From Candidatus Syntropharchaeum caldarium (GTDB lineage: Archaea; Halobacteriota; Syntropharchaeia; Syntropharchaeales; Syntropharchaeaceae), in the NCBI GenBank assembly GCA_001766815.1, contig LYOS01000001.1, positions 390,001 through 422,000 on the forward strand: a stretch of 32,000 bases of DNA, read 5' to 3'. This document shows, in pieces, positions 26,525 through 31,991 of this stretch (position 1 is its first letter; every line of letters starts with the position of its first letter). A model generated the notes under the pieces. The model searched no databases. It was not told the DNA's origin and saw nothing but the letters and a program-made list of their open reading frames with translations. A program made the position numbers and the translations under genes.

Positions 26525-27190
26525 ATGCATCTCAATACCCTCTACCTCACCCTGCGATCCACAACTCCAATAGAGGGGGATGCATCGCATTTAAGGGGCT
26601 TCTTTGCAAGCAGGTTCAACGAATACGCCCTTCTCCACCAGCACGTTGATGTTGATAAACTTCTGTACCGTTATCCGCGAATCCAGTACAAGATAATCGA
26701 TGGCGATCCGCTTGTTCTTGGTATAGAAGAGGGGGCAGAGGTATTGAAGGAGATTTATGATAAGTACGAGGAGATACGGATAAAAGATACGGTATATACG
26801 ATCGTTGAACGTGGAATAACGCTGAGAGCGGAGGAATTTGGAGTTTCGAATAAGATTCTTGGTTATACCTTTAAGACCCCGTGGATTGCGCTTAATCAGG
26901 AGAACTATGAGAGGTATCTGAGATCGAAGAGGCGAGAACGGCGTGAGATCCTGCGGCGAATTCTCGTTGGAAATATCCTATCTGCATCAAAGGGGCTTGA
27001 TTATGTTGTACTTGATGAGATAAAGCTTGAGATTGGTGAGATGAAGCCTGTTAAGTGTAAGATCAAGAAAACGCCATTTATGGGGTTTGTGGGTGAATTT
27101 CTCGTGAACTTTGCGATTCCTGAGTACATGGGGCTTGGTAAGTCGGTATCGAGGGGGTTTGGGGCGGTGGTTGGTGCATGCAACTCGTAA
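26525..27190 (+). CDS. cas6: Cas6-like RAMP endoribonuclease (orphan; no CRISPR array in window)
   Basis: 221 aa. The C-terminal glycine-rich loop [13 protein letters not shown] has the GxGxxxxxGxG RAMP/Cas6 signature. The N-terminal [26 protein letters not shown] resembles Cas6-family (PF10040-type) proteins. The 3' end overlaps the ATG of a cas1 remnant. Confidence 0.55.
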
Positions 27191-27407
27191 TCAACACTCG
27201 CGGATCATACCTCAAGAAAGGTCGTTTGCGGTTGAGAATAACATCGAGATCGTCTTCATAGACCAGAATGGCAACCCTTACGGGAGAATCTGGCACTCAA
27301 AGCCTGGAAGCACGACATTGATCAGAAGAAAGCAGCTTGAGATCTATGATAAAGATGATGGGTTGAAGCTTGCAAAGGCATGGTCTTTAAAGAAGATCGA
27401 GAATCAA
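27178..27407 (+). pseudogene. cas1: cas1 remnant: N-terminal about 17 codons, then an out-of-frame internal deletion, then about 59 codons, then truncation
   Basis: The frame from ATG 27178 reads [15 protein letters not shown], a typical Cas1 N-terminus, and stops at 27259-27261. A second frame from about 27231 reads [53 protein letters not shown]. This matches the Cas1 N-terminal beta domain and the start of the helical domain. The catalytic C-terminal two thirds are absent. Confidence 0.75.
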
Positions 27408-27410
27408 AAG

Positions 27411-27527
27411 GAGGATATTGACACCGCGATGAAACTCGGATACAACCACCCGATGGGTCCACTTGAGCTGACAGATCTCATAGGGCTTGATACAATCCTC
27501 AAGATAGAGCAGGGCTTTATGGACGAA
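27411..27527 (+). pseudogene. Fragment of a 3-hydroxyacyl-CoA dehydrogenase C-terminal domain, fused in frame to the cas1 remnant
   Basis: [30 protein letters not shown] closely follows the conserved Hbd/3HCDH_C motif (DID.AMKLG.NHPMGPL.L.D.IGLD). No NAD-binding N-terminal domain is present anywhere nearby. Confidence 0.7.
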
Positions 27528-27565
27528 AGACCGGAAGAGAATCTATTTCCTCTCCTTCTTATTTT

Positions 27566-27898
27566 TCACAATAGAGAATCTTCCTCCTCGATTATCCTGA
27601 TCCCTGCACGCGTAGCATAGAAGTACGCACCTCCAAGAACCTTCTCATAGGGGTATCGCCCTGCAAATGTCTGGATGACGAGAAGATCTCCCCCATTCTC
27701 GGATCGCTGAATTATTACACAGATCACATAGGGCTTCAGGAAGGCCGAGGTTACAAGAATATCCTTTCTCGGTTTTGTGATGTAGTAATAACCTTCAAAC
27801 CTCTCCTCGATCTCTGAGAGCGATCTTGCCTCGTCAAAGACCCACCTGAATGCAAGCGCATTCTTTATCGGAAGCCGTTTTTTGATCTCATCTATCAT
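27566..27898 (-). CDS. Hypothetical small protein (downstream gene of an overlapping two-gene pair)
   Basis: 110 aa counted from the internal Met ([21 protein letters not shown]..). Its ATG overlaps the stop of the upstream 98-aa gene by 11 nt. GATC content is host-like. I recognised no motif. Confidence 0.45.
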
Positions 27899-28184
27899 AA
27901 TTCTCTTTCTCCACAAGAACCTCCTTATGCACAAACCCCGCATCATCAATAGCGAGGAGAAGGTATGCCTGCCTGCCGCTTACCTGCTCATCCTCGATCC
28001 TGGCTCTATACATCGCAATCTCTGGATCCTCAAGAAAGCTTCTGAGAAGTTCTATCTCCTCCTCAAGATCCGTATCCTTTCCACCGTTTTTAAGATACTC
28101 ATCAACCGCCTTCCAGTACCTACCTTTAGCGACCGTCTCGATACACTTTCCTGGTTCAGGTTTTATCGCGATAGTTCTTCTCAT
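27888..28184 (-). CDS. Hypothetical small acidic protein (upstream gene of the pair)
   Basis: 98 aa (MRRTIAIKPEPGKCIETVAKGRYWKAVDEYL..). It is translationally coupled to the downstream gene. A TATATTTTAT element lies about 55 nt upstream on the minus strand. Confidence 0.45.
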   Translation of the reverse strand: MRRTIAIKPEPGKCIETVAKGRYWKAVDEYLKNGGKDTDLEEEIELLRSFLEDPEIAMYRARIEDEQVSGRQAYLLLAIDDAGFVHKEVLVEKENYDR

Positions 28185-28250
28185 ACAGGATCAATTATCT
28201 ATCTTTCTCAAATTCCACAACGGATTCATCCTTCATAAAATATACCTATG

Positions 28251-28262
28251 CGAACTTTAAAA
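28251..28262 (+). promoter_or_regulatory. Possible archaeal BRE/TATA element (cgaacTTTAAAA) for a plus-strand transcript
   Basis: TTTAAAA at 28256-28262 is preceded by a purine-rich cgaa. The hairpin-rich region begins about 25-30 nt downstream. Confidence 0.3.
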
Positions 28263-28284
28263 GAATGAAGAGTACACAAATGTC

Positions 28285-28524
28285 AAACCTCTCGGTGATA
28301 AGCTTTCAGTATGAGGCGTAAAGCACGCCTCATACACCCATGTCCAACCTTCGGTTGGACTTGAGCACCTCTTTGAGGTGCTCCTTTCGCAATGCCTTTA
28401 TCAAAGGCATCTGCGGTTGGACTATCGCTCTTTGAGCGAGTTTTCCTGCCTTCGGCAGGACTGGTCCGGCTGAAAAGCCTACTATTTTGCCGTATGGGCA
28501 TATGGTGTGCTTGCATGGACACAG
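28285..28524 (+). ncRNA. Candidate structured non-coding RNA (unclassified): eight or more back-to-back hairpins
   Basis: Consecutive hairpins are at 28309-28335 (10-bp stem), 28342-28360, 28363-28383 (9 bp), 28389-28414, 28425-28439, 28446-28459, 28468-28479 (GGCU-GAAA-AGCC) and 28490-28505. The GNRA and CUUCG loops read correctly only on the plus strand. The ends are uncertain. Confidence 0.4.
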
Positions 28525-28924: not shown

Positions 28925-28938
28925 TGTTATACGACATT
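28925..28938 (+). repeat. attC-like 3' half-site (TGTTATacGACATT) immediately upstream of the first cassette
   Basis: It matches the 3' end of element A (TGTTATgtGACATT, 29807-29820) at 12 of 14 positions. Confidence 0.4.
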
Positions 28939-28986
28939 TTACTTGGCTATATTTGGTATATAAACCTGTGAATATGGAGGAATATA

Positions 28987-29667
28987 ATGAATTTGATAGA
29001 ATATCTCAAAAAGATTAACAAAGAGGAGTGCCCAGAAGAATGCATTTTTAAACAAAAAAGTCCTAAAGTTGCTATAATTCCTCCGCCTAATGAAATATTA
29101 GGAATTATTGTCTCAAGGGATCCAACATTTGATTGGATAAAGAATTATGAAGAAGCGTGGAAAGAGTACAATGAAACAGTAAACGTTGAGAATCTACGTA
29201 AGAAACTTTTTGAGGCAATTCCTAAATCCCTAATTGAGAGGATTACTACGTATAAAGATAAATTAAATAGCACAGAAGAAGATATTGTTTGTCTTCATAA
29301 AATGATATATAAAAATGTATATTGGACACATCTACACAAATGCTTTACGAACAAACGTGATAAAGAGTATGAATTTGATAATAAGAATGCCATAATATGT
29401 GGAGAGAGATGGTTAGCAAAAGAGCTTGAAATCGCAACAAATACGAAGACAAAATTTATAATCGCTCTTGGTAGGGACGTTCAGAGATTTGTTTGTGAAT
29501 GGCGAGAGGATTATTGTGAAAACAGAGATATAAAGATTATTTACCTTCCTCATCCTTCACCAGCAAATGTTGGAAAGTATTGGTCATGGTGTCCTAAAGA
29601 AGAAAGAAATAAGGTGAGGCTAACGAAACGGATAAATAATTTATTACAACTATGTAAGGGAGGTTAG
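28987..29667 (+). CDS. Divergent uracil-DNA glycosylase-superfamily protein
   Basis: 226 aa with GGAGG 7 nt upstream of the ATG. The motif-A-like GIIVSRDPTF (29101-29130) compares to family-1 GQDPYH. The motif-B-like LPHPSPANVG (HPSPAN at 29551-29568) compares to HPSPLS. The gene is very AT-rich. Confidence 0.5.
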   Translation: MNLIEYLKKINKEECPEECIFKQKSPKVAIIPPPNEILGIIVSRDPTFDWIKNYEEAWKEYNETVNVENLRKKLFEAIPKSLIERITTYKDKLNSTEEDIVCLHKMIYKNVYWTHLHKCFTNKRDKEYEFDNKNAIICGERWLAKELEIATNTKTKFIIALGRDVQRFVCEWREDYCENRDIKIIYLPHPSPANVGKYWSWCPKEERNKVRLTKRINNLLQLCKGG

Positions 29668-29730
29668 AAATTAACGCCAAGCAAAACGCTTCACCACTAT
29701 CGCGGTTCGCTCTCACTTCGTTCGAGTCGT

Positions 29731-29812
29731 ATAACACAGTATACACGGCTCACTCCGTTCGCCCAAATTTCGGCTTCGCCGAAACTTCGTATATGCTGGA
29801 AACGTATGTTAT
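29731..29812 (+). repeat. attC-like imperfect inverted-repeat element A
   Basis: It starts with ATAACA and ends with the complementary TGTTAT. The inner boxes CAGTATAC and GTATA(TG)CTG pair with each other. There is a central hairpin TTTCGGC-TTC-GCCGAAA. The element is homologous to element B over nearly its full length. Confidence 0.55.
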
Positions 29813-29844
29813 GTGACATTGCGTCTATGTCATGAGAGATTAAT

Positions 29845-30474
29845 ATGAGAAAGCTAACTAAGGCAGTTCGTGGAACTCTTCAGCTCGCTCGGCGAAAGAT
29901 AATAACCAATGCATGGCAATTGCTTCGAACTGCTGTTAAATTGTCTGAGCAGCAACAATACGCCATAGCCTGTTTTTTAGCTATGACAGCTATTGAAGAA
30001 ATAGGAAAATTATTTATTTTACAGCTTGTTCAGGGAGATGTGTTTAAGGAACTTGGCGTTAAATTAGAACCACCACCTGACCTAAACACAAAAGAACTTA
30101 ATAAGTTCCTTCGGAACCATCTTGATAAAGCTTTAGAGGCAGCAGCGTCCTCTCTTTACATCAACGCTGGTGCTGACCGGCGACATGGCGTACATCCTAT
30201 AAGTGGGATACATTGTACATCGGGGGTGGTTTTGCTAACTCGTTCCGGTCGCTGGATGAGTATTCGAAATAGCTGTCTGTATACCGAAGTTGACTTTGCC
30301 ACAAACTCAACCTCTTCTCCAAATGATTTTATAACTCGTGAACATGCATACTATTTCATTTGCATGGGATTTGAGGTGTTAGCTGAACAGGCAGAGGCAG
30401 GTTTTGGTTCCGGTCTCGAGGGGCGTGATGTAAGTAAAAGCATTCAGTTCTGGCAAGATCGCCTTAAAGATTGA
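29845..30474 (+). CDS. AbiV-like HEPN-domain protein (putative abortive-infection or defence protein)
   Basis: 209 aa. The pattern YAIACFLAMTAIEEIGK, then RNHLDKA, then IRNSCLYTEVDF follows the AbiV-family arrangement (A..lA..alEE.gK, H..K, lYvd), matched from memory of the family. Confidence 0.45.
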   Translation: MRKLTKAVRGTLQLARRKIITNAWQLLRTAVKLSEQQQYAIACFLAMTAIEEIGKLFILQLVQGDVFKELGVKLEPPPDLNTKELNKFLRNHLDKALEAAASSLYINAGADRRHGVHPISGIHCTSGVVLLTRSGRWMSIRNSCLYTEVDFATNSTSSPNDFITREHAYYFICMGFEVLAEQAEAGFGSGLEGRDVSKSIQFWQDRLKD

Positions 30475-30482
30475 AAAGATTT

Positions 30483-30626
30483 ATGGAACAATGGTCAAGT
30501 ACTGTCGATCTTGATCAACTGGACTTCCTTGCCAATCCTGAGCCGTTGCGAGAGGAAGCGGAGAAGCGTGAGAGTAAGAATGTTGAGAAAAAGGAGAAAA
30601 TGTTTGTACGGCGCAACCTCACATAA
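30483..30626 (+). CDS. Possible 47-aa small ORF between the AbiV-like gene and element B
   Basis: It runs from ATG to TAA and encodes MEQWSSTVDLDQLDFLANPEPLREEAEKRESKNVEKKEKMFVRRNLT. The stop codon lies inside the ATAAC box of element B. There is no clear Shine-Dalgarno sequence. It may instead be a frameshifted C-terminal extension of the AbiV-like gene. Confidence 0.2.
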   Translation: MEQWSSTVDLDQLDFLANPEPLREEAEKRESKNVEKKEKMFVRRNLT

Positions 30627-30697
30627 CACAGGCTATACGGCTCGTTTCACTCGCCCAAATCGGCTATCGCCGACTTCGTATATCCTGAAGCCGTTAT
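30623..30697 (+). repeat. attC-like imperfect inverted-repeat element B
   Basis: The outer boxes are ATAAC and GTTAT. The inner boxes CAGGCTATAC and GTATATCCTG pair at 9 of 10 positions. The central hairpin is TCGGC-TATC-GCCGA. It shares the blocks ATAACACAG, TATAC, GGCTC, TCGCCCAAA, TCGGCT, TCGCCGA and CTTCGTATAT with element A. Confidence 0.55.
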
Positions 30698-30746
30698 CGG
30701 AAATTGCTTAAAGCTAAACATACAAAATAAATAGCGAGGTTAAAAT

Positions 30747-30941
30747 ATGGAAGTGAAGGAATTAATTTTAAAGGAAATCGAAAAGATTCCTGAACAGTAT
30801 CTCACAGAGATATTGGATTTTATACGCTTTTTAGAGACAAAAGCGCTGGAAGAAAGGATGGGGACTGCAATCATAAGCGAAACATCCCTTAAGAAAGATT
30901 GGCTAAAACCTGAGGAGGATGAAGCTTGGCAAGATTTGTAA
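30747..30941 (+). CDS. Type II antitoxin, DUF2281-like (partner of MazF)
   Basis: 64 aa. LKEIEKIPEQYLTEILDFIRFLETKA matches the DUF2281 antitoxin pattern. GAGGT lies upstream. The gene overlaps the toxin gene. Confidence 0.65.
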   Translation: MEVKELILKEIEKIPEQYLTEILDFIRFLETKALEERMGTAIISETSLKKDWLKPEEDEAWQDL

Positions 30942-31258
30942 AGGGGGATGTGGTGGTTGTACCCTTTCCATTTTCGGATTTAACCCATGCCAAGAGACGA
31001 CCTGCTTTAGTTGTGGCTGAATTAGAAGGAGACGACCTGATTCTATGCCAGATAACCAGTCAGCGGATTAAAGATAAATACGCAGTTCCAATTGAGGACA
31101 ATGACTTTGAAACAGGGGCACTCAAGCAGAGAAGTAATGTGCGACCAAATCGTATATTTACAGCGGACCGTCACATAATCTTATACCGTATTGGTCATCT
31201 CAAACCTGATAAGGCTAACGAGGTGATCGAGAGAATAGTAGATATTTTACGACAATGA
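30926..31258 (+). CDS. mazF: MazF/PemK-family endoribonuclease toxin
   Basis: 110 aa. KGDVVVVPFPFSDLTHAKRRPALVV..LILCQITS..VRPNRIFTAD is the classic MazF/PemK pattern. The TTG start overlaps the antitoxin gene by 16 nt. Confidence 0.8.
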   Translation: MARFVKGDVVVVPFPFSDLTHAKRRPALVVAELEGDDLILCQITSQRIKDKYAVPIEDNDFETGALKQRSNVRPNRIFTADRHIILYRIGHLKPDKANEVIERIVDILRQ

Positions 31259-31273
31259 ATTACGCAACTTTCG

Positions 31274-31380
31274 ATAACAGAGCGTATCTGGCTACAGTGC
31301 TTCGCACTTGCCTTTCGGGTCATATAAACAAGCGGGTACGCGGTTCGCTTCGCAACCCCTTCGCATACCCCGTCAGCCGA
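31274..31380 (+). repeat. attC-like element C (conserved ends, divergent centre)
   Basis: The 5' end GATAACAGAGCGTATCTGGCT resembles CATAACACAGGCTATACGGCT of element B. The 3' end CTTCGCATACCCCGTCAGCCGAAATT resembles CTTCGTATATCCTGAAGCCGTTATCGGAAATT. The centre differs and contains its own small hairpins. GTCAG replaces GTTAT. Confidence 0.4.
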
Positions 31381-31426
31381 AATTTTTTATAGTCTTATTT
31401 AAATACTCTCATGGAGGTGTTCGCCT

Positions 31427-31624
31427 GTGGAAACAAAAATAAAGGATCTAACTATCGAAGAATTACGATCATTGATATCAGACACTGTCCGAGAAGCTAT
31501 GAATGATTCAATCGAAGATATGCTGGCACTTTCAAGTGACGAATACCTAAAATCCATTGAAGAAGCGAGAAACGATTACAAAACAGGTAGAGTGAGATCT
31601 ATCGAGGAAATCTTCGATGTATAA
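31427..31624 (+). CDS. Putative type II antitoxin (partner of the RelE/ParE-like toxin)
   Basis: 65 aa with a GTG start and GGAGGTG 7 nt upstream. It is acidic and helical, with a C-terminal ..EEARNDYKTGRVRSIEEIF typical of small archaeal antitoxins. It overlaps the toxin start by 8 nt. Confidence 0.55.
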   Translation: METKIKDLTIEELRSLISDTVREAMNDSIEDMLALSSDEYLKSIEEARNDYKTGRVRSIEEIFDV

Positions 31625-31863
31625 GGTGGTATTCACCCAGCGAGCATTGAAAGATCTTGAAAACATTGATAAAGAGGTTCGTAATAGAATTGCTACAAAA
31701 CTTAAAGAATGCACGAAAGAGCCTCTAATATACGCTCGAAAGTTATCAAACCCAAAGATAGGTACATATCGATTTAGAGTGGGTGATTACCGTGTAATAT
31801 TTGATATTGACAAAAAACATAGTGATTTTGCGAATTGGACACAGAAAGAGCATTTACAAATGA
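31617..31863 (+). pseudogene. relE: RelE/ParE-family toxin interrupted by a 1-nt frameshift
   Basis: Frame 1 reads MYKVVFTQRALKDLENIDKEVRNRIATKLKE..YRFRVGDYRVIFDIDKK. The expected C-terminus IVILRIGHRKSIYK followed by a stop is in the +1 frame (31819-31863), immediately after the run GACAAAAAAC (31809-31818). Confidence 0.75.
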
Positions 31864-31865
31864 TA

Positions 31866-31991
31866 AAACTCCGCTTCACAGGAAACTACTACACCCGTGA
31901 CCGTGTCGAGCGCCTGAAACGCGATCTTGAGAAGGTGGGGCTGGGCGGCAGGGTGGATATGTTCATGATGTCAGCGAGCTATGGGGCGTGA
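31866..31991 (+). pseudogene. Fragment resembling the C-terminal part of an MvhD/FlpD-type domain
   Basis: TGNYYTRDRVERLKRDLEKVGLGGRVDMFMMSASYGA follows the MvhD pattern (CHY..GN..A..R...L...L...G....R.....SASEG). It lacks the upstream Cys-rich part and stops early. This segment returns to GC-rich, host-like composition and lies at the window edge. Confidence 0.4.

Follow-up and report, generated by a model that had tools for sequence, protein, structure and literature searches.

A uracil-DNA glycosylase-like protein with an unusual predicted active site on an integron-type cassette of a Candidatus Syntropharchaeum archaeon

We analysed a stretch of 32,000 nucleotides from Candidatus Syntropharchaeum caldarium (contig LYOS01000001.1 of assembly GCA_001766815.1, positions 390,001 to 422,000), which at its full length is referred to here as the window. 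Towards its end lies an open reading frame (ORF) with an ATG start that encodes 226 amino acids and occupies exactly positions 28987 to 29667 of the plus strand. An earlier note on this DNA had taken the product for a member of the uracil-DNA glycosylase (UDG) superfamily with an altered specificity motif, carried on a mobile-looking cassette. Our results favor both parts of that proposal. According to structure prediction the protein is a true UDG-superfamily member with the UDG alpha/beta fold, and its gene lies, as judged from sequence, on an integron-type cassette that ends in an attC site. This cassette and the one that follows it are delimited by these features:

28927 to 29808, plus strand: predicted UDG cassette, 882 bp, 34.8% GC; 5' start G|TTATACGAC at 28926-28935, next crossover G|TT at 29808/29809
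28987 to 29667, plus strand: UDG gene, 226 amino acids, 32.6% GC
29726 to 29814, plus strand: predicted attC of the UDG cassette, R'' GTATAAC ... R' GTTATGT, covariance-model score 85.5 bits
29809 to 30693, plus strand: predicted AbiV cassette; 5' start TGTTATGTGA (29807-29816), the exact reverse complement of its own R'' TCACATAACA
30621 to 30699, plus strand: predicted attC of the AbiV cassette, R'' ACATAAC ... R' GTTATCG, covariance-model score 88.1 bits

A repeat of ~90 nt follows the UDG gene and, in the same register, the AbiV gene, with inverted-repeat partners upstream of each; in the repeat analysis of the window, repeat families D1/D10 and inverted repeats I2/I3 underlie the attC of the UDG cassette. 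The core sites of attC elements follow the consensus R'' RYYYAAC and R' GTTRRRY. Those of the window (GTATAAC...GTTATGT and ACATAAC...GTTATCG) fit it, and the core sites at homologous loci on other contigs are GCCTAAC...GTTAGCC (contig L022), GCCTAAC...GTTATAT (L026) and GTCTAAC...GTTAGAC (L027). Since the integrase crosses over at G|TT, the first bases of a cassette are expected to be the reverse complement of that cassette's R''. The 5' end of the UDG cassette, GTTATACGAC (28926-28935), is indeed the exact reverse complement of its own R'', GTCGTATAAC (29726-29735). This complementarity extends over an exact 10-mer for the UDG, AbiV and L026 cassettes and carries one mismatch for the L027, L022-160 and L026-TA cassettes, the chance of an exact 10-mer match being ~0.5% per cassette. 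The boundary match therefore places the UDG cassette at 28927-29808 and the AbiV cassette at 29809-30693.

The putative attC sites share a structure of R box, L box and terminal hairpin, in which 85% of cells are paired, versus 26-46% in slid controls, and 10 pairs show compensatory changes, a value that none of 500 shuffles reached; the structure was written by hand and derived from the same five sequences on which it was scored. Folding of the candidates as single sequences of single-stranded DNA gave z values of -0.1 to -2.4, insignificant alone, so the structural claim rests on covariation. On other contigs, the covariance model (R1) picks up two sites in L026, one immediately behind the UDG homolog (E 8e-5) and one behind the toxin-antitoxin pair that comes next (E 0.016), and a weak one behind the UDG homolog of L027 (GTCGTCTAAC...GTTAGACGC); at most homolog loci it finds no attC. 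An nhmmer model of the two good window copies has three matches in L022, and an Rfam scan of the window returned no matches. All array genes lie on the plus strand, and at least two co-oriented attC sites less than 4 kb apart, the definition of a cluster of attC sites lacking an integron-integrase (CALIN; PMC9668308), are present. No integrase or other tyrosine recombinase occurs among the ORFs of the window, and the array is thus CALIN-like.

Some further details of the cassette ends deserve mention. The leader of the UDG cassette is A/T-rich, with a TATA-like TATATAAA (28957-28964) and a Shine-Dalgarno-like GGAGG (28976-28980) before the ATG; with such a leader of its own, the gene might be expressible without the integron Pc promoter. 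Upstream, positions 28850-28960 fold better than shuffled versions of themselves (z -3.2), and the stretch ends with the GTTATAC core at which the UDG cassette begins; a degenerate attC or an attI-like site is conceivable here. The 3' ends of two attC sites are nearly identical over ~22 nt, CCGTTATCGGAAATTGCTTAAA in the window (30685-30706) and CCATTATCGGAAATTGCTTAAA in L022 (7789-7810), which suggests a shared integrase specificity or a cassette pool that spans domains.

The protein is recognised by Pfam model PF03167 with 33.9 bits against a gathering cutoff of 24.3 (E 4e-8), covering only residues 106-197, and a precomputed match to this model is present in most homologs. An AlphaFold2 model, built on an alignment (A1) of 46 relatives from a word-indexed search (best 58% identity, nearly all metagenomic), reached a predicted local distance difference test (pLDDT) score of 91.2 and a predicted template modelling (pTM) score of 0.90. 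Searched against the PDB with Foldseek, it returned UDG-superfamily enzymes only as its top 50 matches (family 4, UdgX, TDG, SMUG1 and UNG), most at a probability of at least 0.96. The leaders were 1ui1, 4zbx and UdgX, then TDG, each with probability 1.0; overall, family 4 and UdgX came first and TDG, SMUG1 and UNG after. Matches to family 4 (1ui1, 4zbx/4zby, 1l9g/1vk2) and UdgX had E values of 1.5e-4 to 1e-3 at 8-16% identity, with TM-scores of 0.48-0.63 for family 4 (E 1.5e-4 to 9e-4) and 0.43-0.49 for UdgX. A phmmer search of the PDB with the single sequence gave nothing meaningful. For the family profile the sole meaningful sequence match was the UDGa of T. thermophilus (1ui0), with YWTHLHKC over YITNIVKC, NAkkCAdkWL over EAKICTDKWL and LpHPs over MFHPA. 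Because the PF03167 score lies above its cutoff and the predicted structure matches those of family-4 UDGs and UdgX, membership in the superfamily is not a chance resemblance. The clade is a small, previously uncharacterised branch of the superfamily on a scaffold of the family-4/UdgX type. Its predicted functional residues are encoded as follows:

29029 to 29043, plus strand: C15-x3-C19, putative N-terminal [4Fe-4S] ligand pair, invariant in 92/92 members covering the region
29113 to 29127, plus strand: motif A, S43-R44-D45-P46-T47; register against GEGPG (family 4) and GQDPY (family 1) from alignments and PMC5387724
29320 to 29343, plus strand: beta-2 strand motif Y112-W-T-H115-L-H117-K-C119, which aligns with YITNIVKC of 1ui0; C119 is the third putative Cys ligand
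29398 to 29400, plus strand: C138, fourth putative Fe-S ligand (NAxxCAxxWL), which aligns with the Cys of AKICTDKWL in 1ui0 (93/95 members)
29551 to 29568, plus strand: motif B, H189-P-S-P-A-N194, which aligns with the motif-B HPA of 1ui0

The register of these motifs can be traced to characterised enzymes through a distant relative, P0133. In hhalign the family profile A1 aligns with P0133 at a probability of 97.3%, S-R-D-P-T falling on G-K-N-P-G and T-H-L-H-K-C on T-N-L-V-K-C; P0133 in turn aligns with 1ui0, with G-K-N-P-G over G-E-G-P-G and T-N-L-V-K-C over T-N-I-V-K-C. In the AlphaFold2 model, SRDPT immediately follows a strand (residues 39-43). The pocket of the T. thermophilus enzyme is formed by E41, G42, E47, F54, N80 and H155, N80 reads N3/O4 of uracil, and the E41-G42 doublet of family 4 corresponds to Q63-D64 of E. 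coli UNG (PMC5387724). By alignment, R44-D45 appear to sit at these doublet positions, which would put D45 at the position of the family-1 catalytic Asp. H115 appears to take the place of the uracil-reading Asn, and H189 that of the leaving-group His of motif B. The predicted architecture is accordingly a composite: a family-4-type scaffold with a four-Cys Fe-S pattern is combined with an Asp like that of family 1 and, where the base would be read, with a novel His. The four Cys (C15, C19, C119, C138) are predicted from the family-4 pattern to bind a [4Fe-4S] cluster.

Conservation counts were taken from a 95-member alignment. The four Cys are conserved in 92-93 members, S43 in 94, D45 in 89, P46 in 93 and T47 in 82; R44 is found in 74, with Gln instead in 10. 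W113, K118 and E146 occur in all 95 and H115 in 93, whereas motif B is slightly more variable (H189 in 86, S191 in 85, N194 in 74). In the smaller alignment A1 the invariant residues are C15, C19, S43, D45, P46, Y54, Y112-W-T-H115, H117-K-C119, T121, C138, W142, E146, G162, H189 and W201. Such near-invariance over 95 members indicates purifying selection on the predicted active-site and Cys residues. Beyond this family there is a wider uncharacterised radiation of UDG-like proteins (P0131-P0189), with the N-terminal Cys pair, YWTHxxKC and HPS, in which motif A reads ISRDPS/ITRDPS, VTEGPN, ISESP or VSRDPA. As these proteins share YWTHxxKC with other forms of motif A, the Asn-to-His switch marks a clade larger than the SRDPT family.

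These results bear unevenly on the earlier note. Both strings it quoted are present as described (GIIVSRDPTF at residues 39-48, HPSPAN at 189-194), its by-eye register is confirmed by the P0133-bridged alignments, the catalytic Asp and His positions are kept as D45 and H189, and the altered motifs that it pointed out are conserved across the family. The first residue of motif A is Ser (S43) and not the Gly it had assumed. Of the Thr-Phe said to replace Tyr-His, only the Thr is a family trait, F48 being unconserved. The choice of family-1 UNG as the reference was wrong, as the profile match to 1ui0 and the Foldseek ranking point to the Fe-S-containing family 4/UdgX type. Little weight can be given to the argument that loss of Tyr147 opens the pocket, since family 4 has Gly at the equivalent position and is nevertheless strictly uracil-specific (PMC5387724). 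The invariant His115 is the stronger specificity signal; this Asn-to-His change, like the four invariant Cys, had been missed.

The presence of UdgX structures among the best Foldseek matches raises the question of whether the protein turns over at all. It might be a damage- or modification-sensing DNA binder, or a UdgX-like suicide enzyme that would crosslink to an abasic site through H115 or H117. The invariant His-x-His-Lys beside the predicted Fe-S Cys would suit such a role, and UdgX is likewise sporadic in distribution (PMC10776899). We nevertheless consider a non-turnover protein quite improbable. The UdgX motif A, GEQPG (PMC10359453), is absent and SRDPT stands in its place; the UdgX TM-scores (0.43-0.49) are no better than those of ordinary family 4 (0.48-0.55); and the conserved Asp at the water-activating position argues for hydrolysis.

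Downstream of the UDG cassette the co-oriented array runs to the end of the window, with the following contents:

29845 to 30474, plus strand: HEPN-AbiV gene (PF18728 HEPN_AbiV E 4e-21; PADLOC AbiV E 2e-12)
30747 to 31258, plus strand: cassette with DUF2281 antitoxin and PemK/MazF toxin (Pfam)
31316 to 31391, plus strand: degenerate third attC-like element, after MazF (nhmmer E 5e-10 with a six-copy model that includes this same copy)
31427 to 31991, plus strand: small antitoxin-like ORF and ParE/RelE-type toxin (PF05016 ParE_toxin E 3e-10)

The third attC-like element was not recovered by the covariance model. Compared with the cassette beside the UDG homolog in bacterial contig L025, the MazF is 74% and the DUF2281 protein 63% identical. 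In the ParE/RelE-type ORF (31617-31991; 124 aa) the toxin model covers residues 4-66 only, and the C-terminal half may represent a read-through into cassette-boundary sequence, or a fusion. The Abi and toxin-antitoxin neighbours named in the earlier note are thus identified by Pfam and PADLOC as HEPN-AbiV, DUF2281/MazF and ParE.

The neighbouring AbiV gene invites the idea of a two-gene system, in which the glycosylase would sense or mark DNA and the HEPN RNase would act as the abortive-infection effector. A HEPN-family gene lies just downstream of the UDG gene at two loci (AbiV in the window, 28987-30474; HEPN_Cthe2314 in L023, 1801-3337), and an MNT/HEPN pair occurs further along the array of L026 (2819-3536), four genes downstream of the UDG homolog. 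The two window genes, however, occupy separate cassettes, each with its own attC and boundary complementarity; the HEPN families differ between loci, most loci lack a HEPN neighbour, and the all-versus-all comparison of loci found no conserved neighbour. We therefore rejected the idea, which we regard as very improbable indeed. The adjacency itself was correctly seen by the earlier note; as AbiV sits in a separate cassette, it is no evidence of a shared system, and the recurrent HEPN proximity is probably a coincidence of cassette or defence-island content.

The backbone of the window carries genes for a DRG-type GTPase, DUF460, ComB (coenzyme M synthesis), MetRS and ExoVII, and its MetRS is 82% identical to proteins of Ca. 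Syntrophoarchaeum/Syntropharchaeales metagenome-assembled genomes (MAGs). The AT-richness that the earlier note had remarked on is evident, the UDG gene having 32.6% GC (26.9% at third codon positions) versus 46.3% in the backbone (first 26.5 kb of the window). Just upstream of the array lie an orphan Cas6 gene (26525-27190; PADLOC Cas6 E 1e-82) and a chimeric ORF (27111-27620) in which a Cas1 fragment (PF01867, residues 38-103) is fused to a C-terminal fragment of a 3-hydroxyacyl-CoA dehydrogenase (PF00725, residues 98-144). No CRISPR array was found within the window beside the Cas6 gene, and the region 26525-27620 looks like a decayed CRISPR-Cas locus. Between it and the array (27566-28522) are two overlapping minus-strand ORFs of 127 and 98 aa and a 79-aa ORF, none of which has a Pfam or PHROGs match. 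The junction of backbone and array (~27.2-28.9 kb) could conceivably be an assembly chimera; the reported length of the source contig (~492 kb) and the recurrence of identical UDG+AbiV contigs in two sequencing runs speak against this.

The family is rare and widely scattered. An exhaustive profile search of 1.84 billion representative proteins yielded 86 clusters at E<=1e-10 and 200 at E<=1e-3. In a pattern scan for the exact peptide YWTHLHKC, which undercounts, 15 of 185,579 species-representative genomes carry it: Methanocella(ceae), Methanosarcinales, Methanomicrobiales including Methanoregulaceae, Bathyarchaeota, Zixibacteria and one unclassified archaeon. No Syntropharchaeales genome is among these 15 carriers, so that this is not a housekeeping family of the host lineage, which would have counted against the earlier note. 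A scan of viral contigs found no relatives, and a BFVD search gave fold-level matches only, to phage family-4-like UDG domains; going by the available data, then, viruses do not carry the gene. The all-versus-all comparison of neighbourhoods showed no gene that accompanies it from locus to locus, except for the synteny between Zixibacteria MAGs, and this is why we take the UDG-like gene to work alone.

The homolog loci themselves are diverse. L022 is a bacterial contig whose rpsB and tsf are separated by an islet of three cassettes (the UDG homolog; a 160-aa gene; DUF2281 with a truncated MazF), each with an attC behind it; L025 carries these genes too, with no detectable attC. In these related bacterial contigs the UDG and MazEF-type cassettes (L022 6309-8260, L025 7001-8219) thus lie within a conserved translation operon, an unusual place for an insertion. 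A co-oriented array in L027 (Elusimicrobiota) opens with the UDG cassette and is divergent from two Xer-like tyrosine recombinases. These were considered as integron integrases and rejected (TIGR02249, 62.7 bits versus a cutoff of 265). Defence-like neighbours occur at some loci, namely an AAA_15/AbiEii-like ATPase (L013), a PLD nuclease (L006), HNH (L009), a superfamily 1 (SF1) helicase (L005), HEPN (L023) and toxin-antitoxin arrays (L026). Homologs in L014 (206-840), L016 (609-1202) and L017 (9953-10640) appear truncated, frameshifted or split in two ORFs and are probable pseudogenes, as fits a dispensable accessory gene.

What might such a protein do? On its sequence it is probably a stand-alone, monofunctional DNA glycosylase. 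We hypothesize that motif A (S-R-D-P-T), the aromatic W50/Y54, the W-T-H115 strand and motif B would together line a pocket for the flipped-out target base, that D45 would position the attacking water, and that H189 would stabilise the leaving base. As H115 stands where an Asn would read uracil at N3/O4, the enzyme probably prefers some other non-canonical or modified base to plain uracil. In the most speculative step, the enzyme would create abasic sites in the DNA of invading viruses or plasmids that contain such a base and so provide a single-gene defence, following the logic of Brig1/2/3 and of the integron-borne Dag enzymes. Glycosylases, those of the UDG superfamily among them, serve as antiviral effectors and are over-represented on integron cassettes (PMC11078745; 10.1101/2025.10.29.685425; 10.64898/2026.02.25.707755), and integron cassettes are reservoirs of defence genes (10.1101/2024.07.02.601719; 10.1101/2024.07.02.601686). 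Of the readings considered, we lean by analogy towards a stand-alone glycosylase that would excise a non-uracil or modified base in the service of defence, with a confidence that falls somewhat short of even. Circumstantial support for defence over repair comes from cassette carriage, foreign composition, patchy cross-domain spread and precedent, and the defence-type neighbours in the window (AbiV, MazEF, ParE) were counted on the same side; antiviral defence by modified-base excision is nonetheless speculative.

Several results should temper this view. For this host, no virus with modified bases is known to us. The toxin-antitoxin cassettes are weak evidence for defence, as their presence in integron arrays is usually put down to a role in stabilising the array. 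A model-free boundary test detected the cassette signature in only ~4-5 of the 21 homolog loci, against a control rate of 1.1%; together with the failure of the covariance model at most loci, this led us to reject the proposition that the gene is always cassette-borne, and the family appears to exist both as mobile cassettes and as apparently fixed genes. At many homolog loci the neighbours are housekeeping genes (purN in Zixibacteria, the gene of a hybrid-cluster protein, GluRS), and in several Zixibacteria MAGs the gene is syntenic beside purN in a vertical-looking manner. Three other model libraries did not recognise the protein: PADLOC-DB 2.0, a database older than Brig1-3, gave 0 matches, NCBIfam 0 families at E<=10, hence no UDG model, and PHROGs none. 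Homology to Brig1 was not detectable by hhalign of profile A1 against the Brig1 sequence (taken from Supplement 1 of PMC11078745; probability 0.2%, E 0.26). Membership in the Brig1 family was accordingly rejected, and the label "Brig1-type" used in the earlier note holds at the level of the superfamily only. Finally, Getz et al. reported that six of seven tested integron UDG-like candidates gave no defence against the phages tried.

The proximity to purN is seen in three arrangements on Zixibacteria-like contigs (L003 5850-7232, L004 9268-10624, L023 1801-4104, the neighbour being a formyltransferase gene) and suggests a longer-term, possibly vertically inherited residence in Zixibacteria. Such residence among housekeeping genes would also be expected of an accessory base-excision repair enzyme. 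As a variant of the Fe-S UDGs it would rid host DNA of bases that are deaminated or damaged in other ways (uracil, hypoxanthine, xanthine, oxidised pyrimidines), and its cassette would have spread because extra repair capacity is useful in some niches, e.g. thermophilic, anoxic sediments. The nearest structural and sequence relatives are family 4 repair UDGs, and the catalytic Asp and His positions are kept. Altered motifs can merely broaden repair specificity, as UDG families 5 and 6 illustrate (PMC5387724), and many non-defence adaptive genes reside on integron cassettes (PMC10661359). We regard repair as rather unlikely all the same, given the replacement of the uracil-reading Asn by an invariant His, a very sparse cross-domain distribution with the YWTHLHKC scan finding no copy in related Syntropharchaeales genomes, the strongly foreign composition (32.6% versus 46.3% GC) and the pseudogenised homologs, which fit a dispensable gene.

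The preferred reading, a stand-alone glycosylase serving defence, can be sharpened into a bolder claim, namely that the protein is the founding member of a new Fe-S UDG family (SRDPT/WTHxHKC/HPS) that removes a modified base peculiar to viruses and passes between Bacteria and Archaea on an integron cassette; taken as a whole, we think this claim unlikely. If the target is a modified viral base, glycosylase immunity (Brig1-3, Dag) would reach Archaea and poorly studied bacterial phyla, and the enzyme might become a reagent for mapping such a base. Should the bolder claim hold, the protein would, as far as we know, be the first antiviral effector of the glycosylase type to be described from an archaeon, and it would clearly exemplify the sharing of a defence gene between domains by attC recombination. 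The active site bears on how specificity and catalysis evolve in the UDG fold (compare PMC5387724). Whatever the function, the window holds a precisely delimited integron-type array in a Ca. Syntrophoarchaeum-like archaeon, whose attC sites and contents (UDG, MazEF) recur in bacterial arrays, a recurrence that lends support to the proposal by Ghaly et al. (PMC9668308) of a cassette pool spanning domains. UDG-superfamily glycosylases on mobile cassettes are already known as a kind, and this putative enzyme belongs with them; for it the claim about context is stronger than the earlier note could know.

With integron cassettes and CALINs, including the archaeal ones (PMC9668308), the array shares co-oriented single-gene or toxin-antitoxin cassettes, imperfect-palindrome attC sites, R''/R' cores and the G|TT crossover. 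Like most archaeal integrons described there it has no adjacent integrase, and related attC sites occur in Archaea and Bacteria. It differs from those cases in its host group, Syntropharchaeales, which the main text of that paper does not mention.

Among known glycosylases, the best structural matches are the family 4 UDGa enzymes of T. thermophilus (1ui0/1ui1), S. tokodaii (4zbx/4zby) and T. maritima (1l9g/1vk2). The protein resembles them in the N-terminal Cys pair, the Cys of the xxKC strand motif, a further Cys ~16-19 residues on and the motif-B His. It is unlike them in motif A (SRDPT with the doublet R-D, versus GE(A/G)PG with the doublet E-G), in the invariant His in place of Asn80, in the lack of a conserved Asn at the motif-3 Asn89 position and in ~30 extra helical residues between motif A and beta-2, at an identity of 13-16%. 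Family 1 UNG (GQDPY/HPSPLS) has Asp-Pro at the same motif-A positions (catalytic Asp64/145) and the HPS of motif B in common with it, and in ten members of the SRDPT family Gln precedes the Asp as it does in UNG. The differences are Thr for Tyr66/147, His for Asn123/204 and the four conserved Cys, whereas family 1 has no Fe-S cluster; UNG (4wpk) also ranks far under family 4 in Foldseek. From UdgX the protein is set apart by motif A, the hallmarks of UdgX being GEQPG and an R-loop (KRRIH) with the crosslinking His (PMC10359453).

Brig1, an alpha-glucosyl-5-hydroxymethylcytosine glycosylase (PMC11078745), differs from the UDG-like protein in having GLNPG as motif A, a segment NFELYPWHS and no four-Cys set. 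For both proteins the nearest solved structure is the family-4 enzyme 4ZBY, in which an Fe-S cluster has been noted (PMC11078745), and in both the base-reading Asn is replaced, by Glu147 in Brig1 (PMC11078745) and, by alignment, by His115 here. Brig2 is a UDG-like protein from integron cassettes that is active against thymidine-modified phages (10.1101/2025.10.29.685425). Its homologs are mainly in Pseudomonadota, Bacillota and Bacteroidota, and the SRDPT family, found in methanogens, Zixibacteria and Elusimicrobiota, is set apart from it by taxonomic distribution. With Brig1, Brig2 and Brig3 alike, the gene shares membership in the UDG superfamily, a single-gene organisation, AT-richness and an accessory character.

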